A DNA stretch of 64,000 nt from a virus (taxonomy: Duplodnaviria > Heunggongvirae > Uroviricota > Caudoviricetes), in IMG/VR virus record IMGVR_UViG_3300017987_000047; one strand, written 5' to 3'. Position 1 is the first letter of the stretch, and each line of letters begins with the position of its first letter. Positions 2,206 through 24,146 of the stretch are shown here, piece by piece. The notes under the pieces are model-generated. The model did no database searches. It had not been told where the DNA came from and saw only the letters and a list, made by a program, of their open reading frames with translations. The position numbers were made by a program, and so were the translations under genes.

Positions 2206-3636
2206 ATGAATAAGAACCGAGAAAAAAGTAAGAAAGTGGCTTGTGACTTCTCTTCGAGAAGTTCCCCCCTTTTTCTTAAAACCAAGATGTTTAAAGCAGC
2301 AAACTATATCTTTGAAAAGTTAAATGCTGCTGGGCACTCCACTTATTTCGCGGGTGGTTGTGTGCGGGATTCAATCCTAAAACTATCTATTAATGATATC
2401 GATATTGCCACTTCAGCAACCCCAGACGAAGTCCAAAAGCTTTTCAGGAAGTCTAAGGCGGTAGGGGCATCCTTCGGGGTTGTGCTTATTGATATTGATT
2501 CCATTCCGTTTGAAGTTGCTACTTTTAGGACTGATAGCTCTTATTCTGACGGGAGGCACCCCGATAAAGTAGAATACAGCAATGATCCCAAGATAGATAT
2601 CCAACGTAGGGACTTCACAATCAACGGTCTTTTCTATGATGCTAAAACCGACGAAGTCCTTGATGTTGTGGGGGGTGTTAAAGACCTGGAAGCCGGAAAG
2701 GTGCGAGCAATTGGTAACCCGGAAGAAAGGTTTGCAGAAGATTACCTCCGGATGTTACGTGCTGTTCGGTTTGCTGCACGGTTTGGATTTGATATTGAGG
2801 ACGAAACTCTGTTAGCAATTCGAGGGAATGCCCATAAAATAAATGACTTAGCCGCCGAAAGGGTTAAAGCGGAGCTTACTAAAATTTGGGCCGGACCCAA
2901 CCCTCACTATGCTCTAGATCTACTTCGGACAACTGGGCTTCTCCAAGAAATATTACCGGAAGTCGCAGCTCTAGAGGGGGTGGAGCAGCCAAAGAAATTC
3001 CACCCCGAGGGTGATGTTTATAATCATACATACTTTGCATTGAAAGCCATGTGGGAGGATTTGGGAGCTGATGTTTCTCCCACCCTTGCCTGGGGAGTTT
3101 TACTCCACGACATTGGCAAACCACGGACTGCTAAGATAAATAGGAGTGGCCGGGTCAGTTTTAATGGGCATGACCACGTTGGTGCGAAAATGGCAGAAAG
3201 GGTTTGTGAGCGTTTGAAATTTTCAAATGAAGAACGAGATTTAATTATTACCTTAGTCCGCAACCATATGAAATTCTTGGTTGCCCGTAATATGAAAACC
3301 GTAACTCTTAAGAAGTTTTTACGAACTGAGGGTTTTGATCAACTCTTACAATTACATAAATATGATTCACTGTCGGGAATCGGGGACCTTTCAAACTATG
3401 AATATACTCAACAAAAACTCGATGCTTTTGAAGCAGGCACCCTCCAAGACGGCCTCAGGCCGAAAATTCTCTTAAATGGCGAAAATTTGAAGGAATTGGG
3501 GTACGAACCGGGGCCCATGTTTGGCAAGTTCATTCGTGCTTTAGAGGACAAACAACTAAACGAAGAGATTAAGACTAAAGAAGAAGCAATTGGTTTTGCG
3601 CGAGTATACCTTGGGAAGGGTAAGAAGAATGTATAA
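2206..3636 (+). CDS. cca: CCA-adding tRNA nucleotidyltransferase / poly(A) polymerase family with HD domain
   Basis: GGCVRD...IDIAT nucleotidyltransferase motifs, HD region LLHDIGKP; strong RBS GAGGAG before ATG 2206. Confidence 0.85.
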   Translation: MNKNREKSKKVACDFSSRSSPLFLKTKMFKAANYIFEKLNAAGHSTYFAGGCVRDSILKLSINDIDIATSATPDEVQKLFRKSKAVGASFGVVLIDIDSIPFEVATFRTDSSYSDGRHPDKVEYSNDPKIDIQRRDFTINGLFYDAKTDEVLDVVGGVKDLEAGKVRAIGNPEERFAEDYLRMLRAVRFAARFGFDIEDETLLAIRGNAHKINDLAAERVKAELTKIWAGPNPHYALDLLRTTGLLQEILPEVAALEGVEQPKKFHPEGDVYNHTYFALKAMWEDLGADVSPTLAWGVLLHDIGKPRTAKINRSGRVSFNGHDHVGAKMAERVCERLKFSNEERDLIITLVRNHMKFLVARNMKTVTLKKFLRTEGFDQLLQLHKYDSLSGIGDLSNYEYTQQKLDAFEAGTLQDGLRPKILLNGENLKELGYEPGPMFGKFIRALEDKQLNEEIKTKEEAIGFARVYLGKGKKNV

Positions 3637-7042: not shown

Positions 7043-7114
7043 AAGCCGGTAGCTCAATTGGTTAGAGCGTCTGTCTTCCGGCGGATGATATGGGTTCGAA
7101 CCCCACCCGGCTTA
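7043..7114 (+). tRNA. tRNA-like gene, anticodon arm aberrant (anticodon not confidently assignable; possibly UUC/CCG), no encoded CCA
   Basis: Acceptor AAGCCGG/CCGGCTT, D-arm GCTC-AATTGGTTA-GAGC, T-arm ATGGG-TTCGAAC-CCCAC; anticodon stem only with G-U pairs. Confidence 0.45.
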
Positions 7115-19156: not shown

Positions 19157-19332
19157 AAAGAAAATAAATTTCGAACATTTTTCCCAAGATTTCTTTTATA
19201 TATTAGGTACCAAAGGGGGGCAGCAAACGCCCACCAGTAATACCCGGTAGCCGGGATTAAAACTGAGGCATTGCTTGTTACGGCCATGTGCCGTACGGCA
19301 CTTTCTGGAGCCCAAAAGCTCCTGCCTCAGAT

Positions 19333-19417
19333 GGGTGCGTCGCTCAGTTCGGCCGAGAGCACTGGCCTTTTAAGCCAGCGGAGTAATCCCACGTAGGTTC
19401 GAATCCTACCGCACCCA
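19333..19417 (+). tRNA. tRNA with Lys-type anticodon loop CUUUUAA (UUU) but 14-nt variable arm; atypical
   Basis: Acceptor GGGTGCG/CGCACCC, D GCTC..GAGC, anticodon stem CTGGC/GCCAG, T-arm GTAGG-TTCGAAT-CCTAC; no CCA. Confidence 0.6.
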
Positions 19418-19567
19418 TGAGCGATAGTTTAATAGGTTGTGGTTCTAGCTTAACCAAAGCATTCGGCTTAATCCCGAAAGATTTGGGTTAGAGTCCCAAG
19501 ACCACAGTCCGCAAAATACCAGGCACTCGCCAGCCTGGAGATGCAGGTTCAAATCCTGCTCGCTCAA
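19418..19567 (+). ncRNA. ~150-nt tRNA-like element: 7-bp terminal stem TGAGCGA/TCGCTCA plus canonical T-arm, with inserted core containing an inner tRNA-like cloverleaf (19438..19507, anticodon loop CTTAATC, T-loop TTAGAGT)
   Basis: T-arm GCAGG-TTCAAAT-CCTGC at 3' end; no D-arm found for outer molecule. Confidence 0.3.
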
Positions 19568-19573
19568 GTGGTT

Positions 19574-19656
19574 GGGGGAGTGGTGGAATGGCAGACACTG
19601 GGGCCTTAAAAGCCCTTGACCGTACGGTCGTGTGGGTTCGAATCCCACCTCCCCTA
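19574..19656 (+). tRNA. tRNA-Leu (anticodon UAA), class II with long variable arm
   Basis: Acceptor GGGGGAG/CTCCCCT, anticodon stem GGGGC/GCCCT loop CTTAAAA, variable stem GACC-gtac-GGTC, T-arm GTGGG-TTCGAAT-CCCAC. Confidence 0.75.
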
Positions 19657-20033
19657 CTTCTTTGAGAGGTTACGGGACCAGGCTAAGAACCCGTTAACCG
19701 GCCGTAGTATTTTCGTCTGGGAGAATGCTACTGGGTCTGGCCCAGCCGAGAATGGGCTATCAAAATTTGATCTGCTGCGGTGGTCCCTACCACTGTCGGT
19801 TTGGGTGGTCACTACCACTTGGTTGCTACCTCTAGGTTGGAAAGGGTAGAGCAGTTCAATGAAACGCGGTGGCCTGCTTACGGAGTGCCAAACGTCGATG
19901 GCAATGACGTAAAAAACACCATTATAGCGAGACTGGGCCTAAGCTGGATAATGAGGTCGCTATAACGTGGGTACTACGTGAGTGTACCTAGGACCAATGG
20001 TTCCCGACATTGGACACCGAAACAAGCGGGAAA

Positions 20034-20106
20034 GGGCCGGTAGCTCAATGGTTAGAGCAGTTGACTCATAATCAATTGGCTGGGGGTTCGAATCCCTCTC
20101 GGCCCA
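20034..20106 (+). tRNA. tRNA-Met/Ile2 (anticodon CAU), elongator-type
   Basis: GGGCCGG-TA-GCTC-AATGGTTA-GAGC-A-GTTGA-CTCATAA-TCAAT-TGGCT-GGGGG-TTCGAAT-CCCTC-TCGGCCC-A. Confidence 0.75.
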
Positions 20107-20108
20107 TC

Positions 20109-20257
20109 GCGCCTGTGGACTGCTGGAAGTCCTTGCCGCTGTCTCGCGCAAAGGCAGCGGACAAACTAGAAATCAATGGATTATCGCGCTTTCCTTAGGT
20201 TTCTGGGGGAAACTTACAATAGTAGGTTGGCGCAGGTTCAATTCCTGCCTGGCGCGC
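20109..20257 (+). ncRNA. second ~149-nt tRNA-like element (terminal stem GCGCCTG/CTGGCGC, T-arm GCAGG-TTCAATT-CCTGC) with structured insert
   Basis: Same T-arm as 19418..19567; internal hairpins GGACT-gctggaa-AGTCC and GCCGCTG...CAGCGGC. Confidence 0.3.
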
Positions 20258-20260
20258 TTG

Positions 20261-20297
20261 AAAAGGGAGGAGCTAATCGCGGCTCCTCCCTTTTTTT
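20261..20297 (+). terminator. rho-independent terminator closing the tRNA/ncRNA array
   Basis: GGGAGGAGC-taatcgcg-GCTCCTCCC then TTTTTTT. Confidence 0.65.
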
Positions 20298-20360
20298 CAC
20301 TAAAAAACATAATGTCAAAATACGAAGTTTCTAAAAATCTATCGAAATTCTATAAAAATT

Positions 20361-20414: not shown

Positions 20415-20630
20415 ATGAACACCAACCGCACAATTTACCACGGGAACTGGGGGATTACTTTTCTTAAAGACGGGAACCGGGTAGGTACCTTCTATTTTCC
20501 TGTTGGCCCACAAGGACCTGTAGATCCTTCGTATAATGAAGTAAGGACGATGCGTAATTGTTGGCTGTTTAATGGGGAATTGCCCGATGACGTTGTTTTA
20601 CATGAAACATTGGAGATAAATAATGGATGA
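20415..20630 (+). CDS. hypothetical protein
   Basis: 71 aa. Confidence 0.4.
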   Translation: MNTNRTIYHGNWGITFLKDGNRVGTFYFPVGPQGPVDPSYNEVRTMRNCWLFNGELPDDVVLHETLEINNG

Positions 20631-21219
20631 GGCAGCAATCGCAAAAAAGTTGGTTGATACATTAAAGAAACTGGGATATACGGTTTCCTGTGCTGAATCC
20701 TGTACAGGGGGACTTGTTACCCATCTCATTACCAGGGTTTCTGGGGCTTCTGACTGCCTAAATGAAAGTATCATAACTTATAGCAACTTGGCAAAGGCCA
20801 AGTATTTAGACATCCCTCTGAAAGTTATCGAAGAATCTGGGGCTGTTTCCCAGACTGTGGCAGTTAAAATGGCCGAGGGCATTTGCAAAATCTCCAAAGC
20901 CAATGTAGGAATTGCTATAACTGGAATAGCTGGTCCAGGGGGAGGAACGGCCCTGAAGCCTGTGGGTACAGTTTGGTTAGGGGTTTGTGTTAACGGCAAA
21001 ACCTTGACAGCACTAGTACCCCCCGAACAGGGCTCAACGTACATACCGACAACTATTGATATGGAGGGCCAAAAGAAGACATCGGGGGTATTTCAACCCA
21101 TAAAGAAAGGCATGGGGCGCACTGCTATCCAGAAGGCATCCGCATATAACGCTTTGTCTCTGGCCCTTCTCGCACTATCTGAAGAAAACCTAAATAAAGG
21201 AGAAACATGTTCAAACTAA
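20623..21219 (+). CDS. CinA C-terminal domain protein (PncC-like NMN deamidase family)
   Basis: LGYTVSCAESCTGGLVTHLITRVSGASDCLNESIITYSNLAKAKYLDI matches CinA_C core. Confidence 0.7.
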   Translation: MDEAAIAKKLVDTLKKLGYTVSCAESCTGGLVTHLITRVSGASDCLNESIITYSNLAKAKYLDIPLKVIEESGAVSQTVAVKMAEGICKISKANVGIAITGIAGPGGGTALKPVGTVWLGVCVNGKTLTALVPPEQGSTYIPTTIDMEGQKKTSGVFQPIKKGMGRTAIQKASAYNALSLALLALSEENLNKGETCSN

Positions 21220-22500: not shown

Positions 22501-23373
22501 ATGGGCTGTATTGAAAAAATCTATAGTGTTTCTGCTCTTACAGGGAATGGGGCTTGTAACGCAAATTGTGCGTTTTGTGCCGGGAAGTATTTGAGGGAAG
22601 AAGCAAAAGCAAGCGATAAAAACTCTTATGATCGCCTGTTGGAAGCATCCATTAAACTTTCTGCGCGGTACGGTGGATGGTCTCTTTCCTTTACTTCAAG
22701 CGGCGAGCCTACCTGTGACCCAGAGGCTGTTACTTCTGCTTTACAAATCTATTCTAAGTGCGCAAAGGAAGGGGCATATTTCCCAAACGTTAATCTGTTC
22801 ACAAATGGTATTCTTTTCGGGGATACTCCTTTCTGCACGAAATACCTACCGCTTTGGAAAGAATTAGGGTTAAGCAATATTGTAGTTTCTGTTTTTGACG
22901 AAGACGAGAAAAACCAAGCAAAAGCGTATGGCTTAAAAACATACCCTGATTATACAAAGATTGTCGAAAACGCCCGAAAACATGGAATAGGAGTAAGAGC
23001 AACTTTATTGCTTGGAAAAGGTGGGGTTGAGAATGGTAAGAAGTACGAGCAAGCAGTAACCACTCTTATCTCAAAAGGAATTAAGAATATTACATCCTGG
23101 CCAGTTGGAAATCCCGATGGATCAAGGAATGAATTTACCCCATCCCGACTAGGGCTTCTAAGTATTCGATGGTGGCTTTTTAGAAATGCAAAGAAATGTC
23201 ATGGACATGTTTGGGGTGGTGGGGTTTATGATTATAAGGGTAGCATTTTAAGATATACAGATTATGTAACAAAGCATGACCCTAAGAAGGATTTTGTGCG
23301 CCAGCTTGTTGTTTTTCAAAATGATGTTGTGGCATATTCATGGATCAGGGAAGGCGCTCTATGTCTAAAGTAA
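22501..23373 (+). CDS. radical SAM domain protein
   Basis: CxxxCxxC = CNANCAFC; SSGEPT glycine-rich SAM motif. Confidence 0.7.
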   Translation: MGCIEKIYSVSALTGNGACNANCAFCAGKYLREEAKASDKNSYDRLLEASIKLSARYGGWSLSFTSSGEPTCDPEAVTSALQIYSKCAKEGAYFPNVNLFTNGILFGDTPFCTKYLPLWKELGLSNIVVSVFDEDEKNQAKAYGLKTYPDYTKIVENARKHGIGVRATLLLGKGGVENGKKYEQAVTTLISKGIKNITSWPVGNPDGSRNEFTPSRLGLLSIRWWLFRNAKKCHGHVWGGGVYDYKGSILRYTDYVTKHDPKKDFVRQLVVFQNDVVAYSWIREGALCLK

Positions 23374-24146
23374 CTAGCTTATCCCTTTTTGTAGGGACAG
23401 GAAAATGTAATGCGAAGTGTAAACACTGTGCCGGAGTGCCCCTTCGAGAATATGCTCCTAAGACAGATGGTGACGTTGACCTAGAACATCTTTTTCAAGT
23501 CCTACAAGAATGCGCCGCAAAAGGCGCTCACTATCTCTCAATAACTAGCAGTGGGGAACCGACGCTCTCCCCGGAGTCGTTAACTAAGGTTCTACAATTT
23601 ATTAAAGATAAGAAATTTAGGTTTTCGCCTATTAACCTTTACACTAATGGAATTCGAATCGGAGAAGACCTAGAATTTAGTAACCGTTTTCTACCTTTAT
23701 GGGCAAGTCTTGGGTTAACATCCCTATATGTCACCATTCACAGTATAGATGAAAAAGTGAATGCAAAAACATATGGGGTTGGGCAATACCCTCCCTTAAA
23801 ACTTATCTTAGAAAGAATACACCGAGCGGGATTATTGATGAGAGCGAATATTATGTTGCATAAAGCTGGGATTTTTTCTTTACAAGATTTTCAATTAACT
23901 ACCCAGCACCTACTTGCTCTTGGGGTTGACAAGATTTCTGCTTGGCCCATCAGGAATCTTAAGGATAAAGTTGACTTAGACTTAGCCCCTTCTATAAAGG
24001 TATTAGGCTCCATTGAATCCTGGATAAAGAAGCAGGATTTAGATGAAAGGATAAAACTTACCCAAGCAAAGGGAAAGAAGTCAAAGGTTGGGGGGAAACT
24101 TACTTTGTTTCCAAACGGAAAGCTTTCCAGTTCCTGGTGTAATTAG
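23340..24146 (+). CDS. radical SAM domain protein (paralog of upstream gene)
   Basis: CNAKCKHC, TSSGEPT, same NxYTNGI...FLPLW pattern as 22501..23373. Confidence 0.7.
   Translation: MDQGRRSMSKVTSLSLFVGTGKCNAKCKHCAGVPLREYAPKTDGDVDLEHLFQVLQECAAKGAHYLSITSSGEPTLSPESLTKVLQFIKDKKFRFSPINLYTNGIRIGEDLEFSNRFLPLWASLGLTSLYVTIHSIDEKVNAKTYGVGQYPPLKLILERIHRAGLLMRANIMLHKAGIFSLQDFQLTTQHLLALGVDKISAWPIRNLKDKVDLDLAPSIKVLGSIESWIKKQDLDERIKLTQAKGKKSKVGGKLTLFPNGKLSSSWCN

Follow-up and report, generated by a model that had tools for sequence, protein, structure and literature searches.

The transfer RNA (tRNA) cluster of bacteriophage T4 ends with two small stable RNAs of unknown function (PMC3014915, PMC12685909). 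Besides these T4 RNAs, designated C and D, no tRNA-shell RNAs, in which an acceptor-like stem and a T arm enclose a body other than that of a tRNA, were found in the literature searched. An alignment of RNA C (species 1 RNA, rnaC) from six Tevenvirinae phages (T4, T2, VR7, two Enterobacter phages, and Yersinia phage TG1) reveals 16 compensatory base pairs (bp), including pairs within the T stem and the terminal stem; in the latter, an A-U pair is replaced by G-C and two U.U positions become U-A and C-G in TG1. tRNAs are also a main battlefield between phages and bacteria, involving PrrC, RloC, PARIS, retron effectors, Schlafen-type nucleases, OLD, and Cas12a3, and counter-defence is now being read into the tRNA genes of phages. 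Specifically, the PARIS nuclease AriB targets the lysine (UUU), threonine (UGU), and asparagine (GUU) tRNAs, and phage T5 escapes via variant tRNAs (PMC11464382, PMC12409363). [quoted passage not shown] The present analysis concerns a 64,000-nucleotide (nt) stretch, termed the window throughout, of IMG/VR virus record IMGVR_UViG_3300017987_000047, whose source is a huge phage of approximately 384 kb. Two window elements of approximately 150 nt, E1 and E2, are T4-type tRNA-shell RNAs, a kind of RNA that is known but unexplained, and a tRNA-Lys(UUU) lying beside E1 carries a long variable arm that is a phage-specific tRNA body. The reading favoured here, with confidence that stands at an even balance, is that these genes belong to an operon making three decoding tRNAs together with two stable, non-decoding, tRNA-scaffolded RNAs of approximately 150 nt. 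A preliminary description of the region, the features of which are all present at the positions it gave or within 1-2 nt of them, overlooked both the phage-specific family of the tRNA-Lys and the 50-year-old precedent of T4 species 1 RNA. Two structural solutions used at this locus, long-arm bodies bearing class I anticodons and tRNA shells of approximately 150 nt, are undescribed in the literature searched.

Architecture of E1 and E2

The two shells and the substructures of E1 are as follows.

19418-19567 (+): E1, tRNA-shell RNA of approximately 150 nt, between tRNA-Lys and tRNA-Leu
19438-19509 (+): inner cloverleaf of E1; Rfam tRNA match at 19439-19506 (45.2 bits), ARAGORN call at 19437-19510
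19519-19538 (+): hairpin of E1 in the anticodon-arm position, CCAGGC-ACUCGCCA-GCCUGG, 6 bp with an 8-nt loop
20109-20256 (+): E2, tRNA-shell RNA, after tRNA-Met and directly ahead of the terminator

Each element closes an acceptor-like stem upon a T arm. The 7-bp terminal stem initially described for both is complete in E1, where UGAGCGA (19418-19424) and UCGCUCA (19560-19566) form seven of seven Watson-Crick pairs ahead of discriminator A19567; in E2, six of the seven positions of GCGCCUG (20109-20115) and CUGGCGC (20249-20255) are paired, with a U.U at 6:67, and the element ends with discriminator G20256, one base earlier than originally placed. The E1 terminal stem is stacked directly on the T arm GCAGG-UUCAAAU-CCUGC at 19543-19559, and the corresponding E2 arm is GCAGG-UUCAAUU-CCUGC at 20232-20248. 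As had been reported, the two share this arm: the motif GCAGG-UUCAA(A/U)U-CCUGC occurs at no other site in the 64 kb, and a search allowing up to three mismatches returns three matches, the third being tRNA-Lys, against 0.24 expected. Both elements possess the 7-position acceptor stem, 5-bp T stem, and UUCRANY loop of a canonical tRNA, in keeping with their earlier designation as tRNA mimics. Neither possesses a canonical anticodon arm (5-bp stem, 7-nt loop, Y32 U33...R37, at the standard distance from the elbow), and the unspliced bodies are unable to hold an anticodon as far from the elbow as it normally lies in a tRNA.

Within the shells, the two bodies are built differently. In E1, U8 A9 is followed by a D-loop-like sequence containing GG (AAUAGGUU), the inserted cloverleaf, the hairpin, AGAU, and the T arm, and the only D-stem candidates are weak (GUUU/AAAU or GUUU/UGGU). 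When the insert is deleted in silico, ARAGORN reports a tRNA whose anticodon loop measures 6 or 8 nt and whose anticodon is unassignable. The cloverleaf itself, previously recognized as hidden in E1, matches the Rfam tRNA model with an expect value (E) of 2e-6 over the 64-kb window and has the anticodon loop CUUAAUC (anticodon UAA), the T loop UUAGAGU, and a D loop of 5 nt that lacks GG. The acceptor stem of this cloverleaf is shifted in register, with 7 bp at positions -1 to 6, a 3-nt connector, and no nucleotide 66, and the acceptor helix is prolonged to 10 bp into the junction. E2 is tRNA-like for 26 nt, comprising U8 G9, a canonical D arm (GACU-GCUGGA-AGUC) with G18G19, and C26, after which its body consists of three successive hairpins of 12, 9, and 7 bp, the first having the loop CGCGCAA with G at position 33. 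Two of the E2 loops could form a 4-bp GCGC kissing contact. A CUCGC / CGC motif shared by hairpin loops of E1 and E2 was set aside as too short to weigh.

Both folds are more stable than those of shuffled controls (z = -4.5 for E1 and -4.2 for E2, with 0 of 200 shuffles as stable in either case). The full nested cloverleaf of E1 lies only 0.1 kcal/mol from the minimum free energy (MFE), and the shell-constrained fold of E2 reaches -61.4 kcal/mol compared with an MFE of -62.5 kcal/mol.

E1 and E2 are part of a GC-rich run of contiguous structured RNA genes (window 19215-20297, +) that is closed by an intrinsic terminator and contains, in addition, the following features; the last line gives the enzyme, encoded elsewhere in the window, that is considered with them below.

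19263-19330 (+): E0, tRNA-sized leader module; three-way junction with an 8-bp closing stem CUGAGGCA/UGCCUCAG around two hairpins
19333-19417 (+): tRNA-Lys(UUU) with a 14-nt variable arm; Rfam 61.7 bits, ARAGORN
19574-19656 (+): tRNA-Leu(UAA), canonical class II; Rfam 55.8 bits, ARAGORN
19657-20033 (+): spacer of 377 nt, a GC-rich chain of hairpins; no gene call, no Rfam match
20034-20106 (+): tRNA-Met/Ile2(CAU); Rfam 73.7 bits, ARAGORN
20265-20297 (+): intrinsic terminator, GGGAGGAGC-UAAUCGCG-GCUCCUCCC followed by U7, 8 nt past E2; read directly from the sequence
2206-3636 (+): CCA-adding enzyme of bacterial type, with PolyA_pol head, RNA-binding, HD, and tRNA_NucTran2_2 domains; Pfam E = 2e-36

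GC content is 0.51-0.55 over the whole block and approximately 0.38-0.50 on either side, and the genes are tightly packed: 0 nt separate tRNA-Lys from E1, the first base of which directly follows the tRNA-Lys discriminator, 6 nt separate E1 from tRNA-Leu, 2 nt separate tRNA-Met from E2, and 8 nt separate E2 from the terminator. The terminator was not among the outputs of a simple terminator scan. On the basis of this layout and the terminator, the block is probably a single transcription unit. In agreement with the preliminary description, which had also identified the Leu and Met/Ile tRNAs, no gene of the block encodes CCA, and a CCA-adding enzyme is co-encoded; at 476 amino acids it is the longest open reading frame (ORF) of the window.

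The long-arm tRNA-Lys and the surrounding locus

The tRNA-Lys has the anticodon arm CUGGC-CUUUUAA-GCCAG, and its class II-type variable region of 14 nt (CGGAGUAAUCCCAC), which had already drawn attention, pairs as a GGA/UCC stem. Its D arm, GUCGCUCAG-N(2-4)-GGCCGAGAGC, is invariant in a 12-member alignment consisting of the window tRNA-Lys and 11 relatives. The long-arm subfamily alignment contains 14 compensatory pairs, and the variable-arm stems covary (GGA/UCC, GGAUC/GAUCC, GAGU/ACUC, GGGUC/GACCC, UGGU/ACCA, GAC/GUC). The long-arm family is defined here by the invariant D arm, a canonical anticodon arm, a covarying variable arm of 12-20 nt, and occurrence in phage-type arrays, all of which characterize the window tRNA-Lys. 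Since the family is recurrent and covarying, the arm is not an assembly artefact, a concern that had been raised at the outset.

A first metagenome scan with a Lys-specific pattern gave no match in a collection that lacked even the source contig. In a second scan, long-variable-arm tRNA-Lys(UUU) proved to be common in phage-like tRNA arrays, where its usual neighbours are a normal-length tRNA-Lys(UUU) and a tRNA-Lys(CUU); one relative (L212) has an acceptor stem identical to that of the window tRNA-Lys. These metagenome arrays show no protein similarity to the window by tblastx and therefore come from unrelated phages. Further long-arm tRNAs in such arrays include Asn, Ile, His, Thr, Trp, Gln, Phe, and Cys. 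The same body with the anticodon GUU is found in the cultured Xanthomonas jumbo phage Xoo-sp13 as an 87-nt gene that is unannotated in GenBank, making this phage an experimentally tractable case of long-arm tRNAs. The Xoo-sp13 region (MN047793.1, approximately 48.47-48.85 kb), in which GenBank annotates no tRNA, holds an 89-nt tRNA-Cys(GCA) (L345:2208-2296) in addition to the 87-nt tRNA-Asn(GUU) (L345:2501-2587); both carry long variable arms, and the D arm of the tRNA-Asn is that of the window tRNA-Lys.

Among the tRNAs of 185,579 cellular species-representative genomes (GTDB), the long-arm D-arm pattern was not found once; all 15 GTDB matches to the pattern lie outside predicted tRNAs and look like chance occurrences in high-GC sequence. 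The long variable arm is thus a phage-specific tRNA body, one on which class I anticodons are placed (Lys here; Asn, Thr, His, Ile, and others elsewhere), and the literature searched yielded no account of phage tRNAs for Lys or Asn with a long variable arm. By analogy with the variants of T5, evasion of tRNA nucleases is a reasonable reading of the body of the long-arm tRNA-Lys: a decoder placed on a phage-specific body would plausibly escape such enzymes.

Regarding the remainder of the block, E0 ends 2 nt upstream of tRNA-Lys, and its second hairpin (GGAGC-CCAAAA-GCUCC, 5 bp) abuts the 3' strand of the closing stem, resulting in a minihelix-like stack. The E0 region (19215-19332) folds with z = -3.6, and E0 is also recovered by the closure screen described below; it has no T-loop consensus and no Rfam match, and may be a processing or 5'-protective module. 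The GC-rich hairpins ascribed to the spacers are present, although the fold of 19657-20033 is not significant relative to shuffles (z = -1.7). The near-repeat hairpins noted there lie at 19779-19794 (GGUGGUCCCUACCACU) and 19804-19819 (GGUGGUCACUACCACU), and a candidate closed module of 106 nt (19696-19801) comprises the first of them together with GUCGGUU, which can pair with AACCGGC. The block had been termed ORF-free; mechanical calling yields five ORFs of 61-77 amino acids, all with GTG or TTG starts and all overlying RNA genes, and credible coding support is absent, four having no family match and one a weak match to an uncharacterised PHROG over the tRNA-Met stretch. The latter ORF (20010-20198, +) matches phrog_23857 with E = 9e-4, a family that may be partly built from spurious ORFs called over phage tRNA genes.

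Additional window genes encode a phosphoribosyltransferase, a GNAT acetyltransferase, two radical-SAM proteins, an HNH endonuclease, a sigma factor, a metallophosphoesterase, a guanylate kinase, and a CinA-like protein. The CinA/PncC-like gene and the two adjoining radical-SAM genes lie just downstream of the array (window 20623-21219 and 22501-24146, +). The host is judged to be bacterial from the class II CCA-adding enzyme with its HD domain, and the nearest CinA relatives outside this phage, which belong to Clostridia, offer a weak hint of a Firmicutes host. An isolated and odd tRNA lies approximately 12 kb from the array (window 7043-7114, +; Rfam 50.7 bits; CCA not encoded); its stem UCUGU/GCGGA (5 bp) surrounds a 6-nt loop, CUUCCG, or alternatively 4 bp surround an 8-nt loop, ARAGORN leaves the anticodon unnamed, and the T stem has one mismatch. 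The same phage was assembled independently from sample SRR14699967 (L001, L346) with a break inside tRNA-Met (window approximately 20049-20078), one contig stopping at window 20078 and the other beginning at 20049. Both are 100% identical to the window, as are other assemblies of the phage, which hold no informative single-nucleotide polymorphisms; the array sequence is reproducible across assemblies.

Readings of E1 and E2

In the favoured reading, the whole block would be transcribed as one unit in which E1 and E2 keep the part of a tRNA that is read during maturation, namely the acceptor stem on the T arm and the elbow formed with the D-loop G18G19. Every acceptor stem, in E1 and E2 as elsewhere, would be cut at its 5' end by RNase P, and, since E1 starts right after the tRNA-Lys discriminator, one cut at the E1 start would also create the tRNA-Lys 3' end. 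The 3' ends would be trimmed, after which CCA would be added by the phage enzyme. The shell would guard E1 and E2 from exonucleases and allow them to accumulate as stable RNAs of approximately 150 nt, because, by the principle of the tRNA scaffold, the shell is what tRNA maturation and protection systems recognise. The bodies replacing the anticodon-arm region would lie out of reach of the decoding centre, and may bind or titrate tRNA-recognising host factors, for example tRNA-cleaving defence nucleases. Titration of tRNA-binding host factors is the role that is favoured for the bodies, albeit with low confidence. Processing, stability, and any decoy function are what we infer, as distinct from the sequences, folds, shells, non-canonical bodies, gene layout, rnaC architecture, and long-arm tRNA-Lys family, which the analysis demonstrates.

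Several observations weigh against this reading. Firstly, no homologues of E1 or E2 were found in any collection searched, such that there is no conservation or covariation evidence for the two elements themselves. In a blastn search of 50,697 phage records, matches were confined to the tRNAs for Met and Leu and no E1 or E2 relative was returned, and three scans of IMG/VR, one each with the CinA-like neighbour, the 3' end of E1, and the anticodon arm of tRNA-Lys, found nothing related. An IMG/VR scan with the inner T arm (UGGGUUAGAGUCCCA) returned 73 loci, many of them ordinary phage tRNAs and the remainder unrelated matches; the loop is therefore not unique, and no nested relatives are among these loci. 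Homologues of two flanking proteins occur only on contigs of 0.8-2 kb; relatives at approximately 75% amino-acid identity are present in SRR17165147 and ERZ27256773. Secondly, when the rest of the window was searched for repeats of E1, E2, or the spacer and for sequences to which they could be antisense, nothing exceeded chance 11-14-mers. Thirdly, covariance models accept the three tRNAs and the inner cloverleaf and score both shells below threshold: relative to the 29-bit gathering threshold of the Rfam tRNA model (RF00005), the outer part of E1 is matched over the T arm only (19539-19559, 16 bits, E = 5.4), and E2 is not matched at E <= 10; at that cut-off Rfam returned no further family for the two shells. 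Similarly, a covariance model of rnaC gives 7.5 bits for E1 (19513-19559) and 9.1 bits for E2 (20222-20316), whereas the window's ordinary tRNAs receive 13-17 bits via the common shell. Additionally, the E2 acceptor stem contains the U.U mismatch; no sigma-70-like promoter was found upstream of the block, which bears on the single-operon claim; a recent duplication of a tRNA fragment, and not constraint, could account for the identical T arm; and, as the T4 analogue has no known function, the analogy explains form and not role.

A survey of other arrays shows that similar long tRNA-shell elements recur in phage tRNA clusters. In 2.5 Mb of phage and metagenome loci, 257 T arms lie outside any ARAGORN tRNA, and a perfect 7-bp acceptor closure was found 96-260 nt upstream of 68 of these orphan T arms, as opposed to 8-13 for shifted control 7-mers, although the 68 include archaeal intron-bearing tRNAs and some att-site fragments and so overstate the phage-specific signal. 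Shells with the class II D arm UG-GCGG-AAUGUAAAGAC-GC and bodies of 60-160 nt are present in L087, L093, L116, L119, and L137. The Rfam tRNA model accepts some of the long array elements at 32-53 bits, and none is homologous to E1 or E2. Such data suggest that phage tRNA arrays commonly contain shells, which standard annotation overlooks and leaves as "hypothetical proteins" or gaps.

Several kinds of long element were encountered in this survey. The shell family with the UG-GCGG-AAUGUAAAGAC-GC arm spans 104-211 nt overall (L087, L093, L116, L119 in two copies, L137, L126, L166, and L167, as well as a site downstream of tRNA-Lys in L222); its members have the T arm GCAGGUUCAAAUCCUGC and heterogeneous bodies without an anticodon arm, and mostly have no Rfam match, with L116 and L126 passing weakly as tRNA (32-35 bits). 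A second group consists of conserved elements of 126-128 nt (L238:5238-5363(-), L248:4491-4617(-), L254:9498-9624(-), L268:1320-1447(-), and L309:11603-11728(+)) and of 139 nt (L248:4628-4766(-) and L254:9635-9773(-)), all with canonical acceptor stem, D arm, and T arm and with an insert of 57-70 nt between the D arm and the anticodon loop. The anticodon loops are intact (Gln-like UUUUGAA or Asn-like CUGUUAA), the motif GAGUUACUUCG is common to both element types, and these may represent either tRNAs bearing an additional arm or a novel type of insert. Two IMG/VR loci are nested: L143:11057-11248(+) is a tRNA-Pro(UGG) whose 115-nt anticodon-loop insert has its own acceptor stem, T arm, and CCA, and L192:5438-5578(+) is a class II-type shell around a second T arm (GGGGUUCGACUCCCC). 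Finally, L207, L210, L211, L213, L216, and some 20 further peat and soil metagenome contigs carry tRNA-Lys(UUU) genes of 105-110 nt in which the acceptor stem is GGGCCCG and the D loop and variable region each contain inserted sequence; these look like archaeal multi-intron tRNAs, are unrelated to the phage, and inflate long-closure screens.

The most serious alternative, which we nonetheless regard as unlikely, is that E1 and E2 are decaying or rearranged tRNA genes, left as scars of recombination or insertion and perhaps transcribed, with no function of their own. The lack of relatives or conservation is in line with such decay, as is the closest relative with a recoverable neighbour, in which the approximately 500 nt of a 1,505-nt contig upstream of the CinA-like gene are coding and hold neither a tRNA nor an array. 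The identical T arm likewise fits duplication of a tRNA 3' fragment, and other window tRNAs are odd as well, including the one with a 6-nt anticodon loop at 7043-7114 and the inner cloverleaf, which is without G18G19. Decay does not, however, sit easily with shells that are intact where it matters (acceptor register, T-loop consensus, G18G19, and U8), with bodies that are long, near-perfect helices (12, 9, and 7 bp in E2) folding at z below -4, or with a GC content that is raised over the whole block and a tRNA-like packing against neighbours. Furthermore, the same design is conserved and covarying in T4-like phages and recurs in other arrays.

A slightly less probable suggestion is that E1 and E2 are tRNA genes with short inserts or introns, which would decode after removal of the insert or with the insert kept as an extra arm. 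In its intron mode, ARAGORN reads E1 as tRNA-Trp(CCA) with a 79-nt insert and E2 as tRNA-Asn(GUU) with a 58-nt insert, with exactly the boundaries originally proposed, and convincing insert-bearing tRNAs with intact anticodon arms exist elsewhere (L025 Arg(UCU), 41 nt; L196 Lys(CUU), 36 nt; L143 Pro(UGG), 115 nt). The conserved 127-nt and 139-nt elements with UUUUGAA and CUGUUAA loops would be further examples, and some of these insert-bearing genes pass the Rfam tRNA model at 32-53 bits. For E1, however, the intron reading entails a weak anticodon stem (UCUAG/CUGGA) and a D stem in which three pairs are G.U and one position is mismatched, and it breaks the 45-bit inner cloverleaf; for E2, it entails an anticodon stem of two Watson-Crick pairs, two G.U pairs, and one mismatch, and gives an Asn tRNA a variable arm of 23 nt. 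Within the precursors, these structures cost 16.0 (E1) and 13.8 (E2) kcal/mol relative to the MFE. Because of these weak stems and energy penalties, and because the intron mode makes many false merges of adjacent tRNAs on other loci, the calls are judged to be unreliable. Neither shell reaches the Rfam tRNA threshold, and the fold contains continuous helices with no 3-nt bulges and hence no bulge-helix-bulge motif. To our knowledge, bacteria have no splicing route for inserts of this kind. Of the more specific proposals in the preliminary description, group I introns fail on the size of the inserts (58-79 nt, too short) and the absence of an Intron_gpI match, and permuted tRNAs on the order of the halves, which is normal.

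Still less probable is that E1 is the precursor of the inner tRNA(UAA), which would be freed by RNase P and a 3' endonuclease, leaving the outer part as a processing or stabilising clamp or as ligatable halves. Such a role is consistent with the 45-bit tRNA score, with the presence of UUAGAGU-type T loops in bona fide phage tRNAs, and with the nested precedent of the L143 tRNA-Pro and its insert. RNase P and RNase Z leave 5'-phosphate and 3'-hydroxyl ends, which can be ligated by Rnl-type ligases. On the other hand, the inner tRNA has an out-of-register acceptor stem and U at position 37, G18G19 is missing from its D loop, and the prolongation of the helix into the junction leaves no free end. 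The product would also be redundant with the canonical tRNA-Leu(UAA) 7 nt downstream, an RNA ligase was not found in the window, and this scenario is silent on E2.

The last candidates, a miniature transfer-messenger RNA (tmRNA) or a bacterial Y RNA of the YrlA type, are largely refuted: although E1 and E2 each combine an acceptor stem and T arm with the lack of a functional anticodon arm, and E2 contains a frame (GCA GCG GAC ... UAG; AADKLEINGLSRFP*) that ARAGORN picks up at a relaxed threshold, the default ARAGORN search is negative, a 727-nt "permuted" call being made only under relaxed settings, G3.U70 is absent (3:70 is A-U in E1 and G-C in E2), no pseudoknots are predicted, the putative resume codon is buried in the 12-bp helix, the tag lacks the usual hydrophobic end, and neither tmRNA nor Y RNA nor YrlA is matched in Rfam at E <= 10. 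Some jumbo phages do encode Ro/TROVE proteins with tRNA-like partners (PMC7824862); no window ORF is long enough for Ro60, no TROVE domain was found in 30 ORFs scanned against Pfam, and the 5' and 3' ends of Y RNAs form a Ro-binding stem rather than an acceptor stem (PMC4201824).

Beyond the favoured reading of stable, tRNA-scaffolded RNAs, a broader and decidedly speculative proposal, which we think unlikely as it stands, would unite E1, E2, and the long-arm tRNA-Lys in a phage repertoire of "re-bodied" tRNAs made up of nuclease-proof decoders and shell decoys or inhibitors. In the first class, an extra arm on decoders would mean that host tRNA-cleaving immune nucleases no longer fit. In the second, an intact acceptor stem, T arm, and elbow would lead to maturation and recognition as a tRNA, and the bodies would decoy or inhibit nucleases or other tRNA-binding host factors. 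In a sub-variant concerning E1, RNase P and RNase Z would cut out the inner tRNA, and an RNA ligase would reseal the two outer halves; if true, a tRNA would serve as the intron of a tRNA-like RNA. Were the repertoire to exist, it would provide a function for the class of RNAs represented by T4 species 1 RNA, unexplained since the 1970s. If the shells act as decoys or scaffolds, they would represent a new class of RNA-based factors for anti-defence or host takeover and, as scaffolds, a natural version of the tRNA scaffold of RNA engineering; if they are only decaying genes, the locus still serves as a warning about the annotation of tRNA arrays.

Comparison with known systems

E1 and E2 share features with several described classes of RNA. 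The tRNA-like domain of tmRNA has, as they do, an acceptor stem, a T arm, and a D-loop analogue without an anticodon arm; RNase P matures tmRNA, which huge phages are known to carry. E1 and E2 differ from it in having no G3.U70, pseudoknots, or credible tag frame, and in measuring approximately 150 nt as opposed to 260-400 nt. Insert- and intron-bearing tRNAs, whether archaeal with a bulge-helix-bulge motif or bacterial with a group I intron, likewise present an interrupted cloverleaf with intact acceptor stem and T arm, and E1 and E2 differ from them in the absence of both the motif and the group I core. In the engineered tRNA scaffold of Ponchon and Dardel, a foreign RNA reportedly takes the place of the anticodon arm, and the shell, made of the acceptor, T, and D parts, is said to recruit tRNA processing and to protect the RNA. 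As that scaffold is man-made, the likeness concerns the probable working mode of E1 and E2 and not common descent.

For the long-arm tRNA-Lys, the closest comparison is with nuclease-resistant phage tRNAs such as the T5 tRNA-Lys(UUU) that withstands PARIS AriB: in both cases a phage encodes a tRNA-Lys(UUU) whose body is unlike that of the host tRNA-Lys. The set of AriB targets recurs as well, in that the long-arm body carries Asn(GUU) in Xoo-sp13 and other long-arm bodies carry Thr(UGU) elsewhere (PMC12409363). The means differ, the escape of T5 resting on two point changes in the anticodon stem and the window tRNA-Lys having a whole extra variable arm together with a fixed D arm.

Records of rnaC itself vary in GenBank: in many Tevenvirinae entries it is labelled "hypothetical protein" (homologues L325:156-263, L326:204-298, and L329:123-251), the record of one Enterobacter phage gives part of it as a 95-nt "tRNA-Met", and in Karamvirus it lies between tRNA-Trp and tRNA-Gly. 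Its conservation is much wider than that of rnaD (species 2 RNA), to which E1 and E2 also bear the lesser likeness. The similarities to rnaC are several. Firstly, the 139-nt rnaC closes a terminal stem of seven positions on a consensus T arm, as do E1 and E2. Secondly, two hairpin domains replace its D and anticodon arms, and long bodies are likewise found in E1 and E2. Thirdly, rnaC lies inside a phage tRNA cluster as the last gene before a stem-loop, just as E2 is the last before the terminator, and, like E1 and E2, does not encode CCA. The two window elements show two traits of the rnaC type, namely a place within a phage tRNA transcription unit, here a probable one, and an acceptor-like stem, a T arm, and hairpin domains within 120-150 nt. 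In contrast to rnaC, which is conserved in hundreds of phages, E1 and E2 are singletons so far, and each departs from it in design, E2 by a true D arm and three hairpins and E1 by its nested cloverleaf; a further point of difference is that the rnaC terminal stem tolerates U.U pairs. E1 and E2 accordingly have the same architecture as rnaC and are not its homologues.

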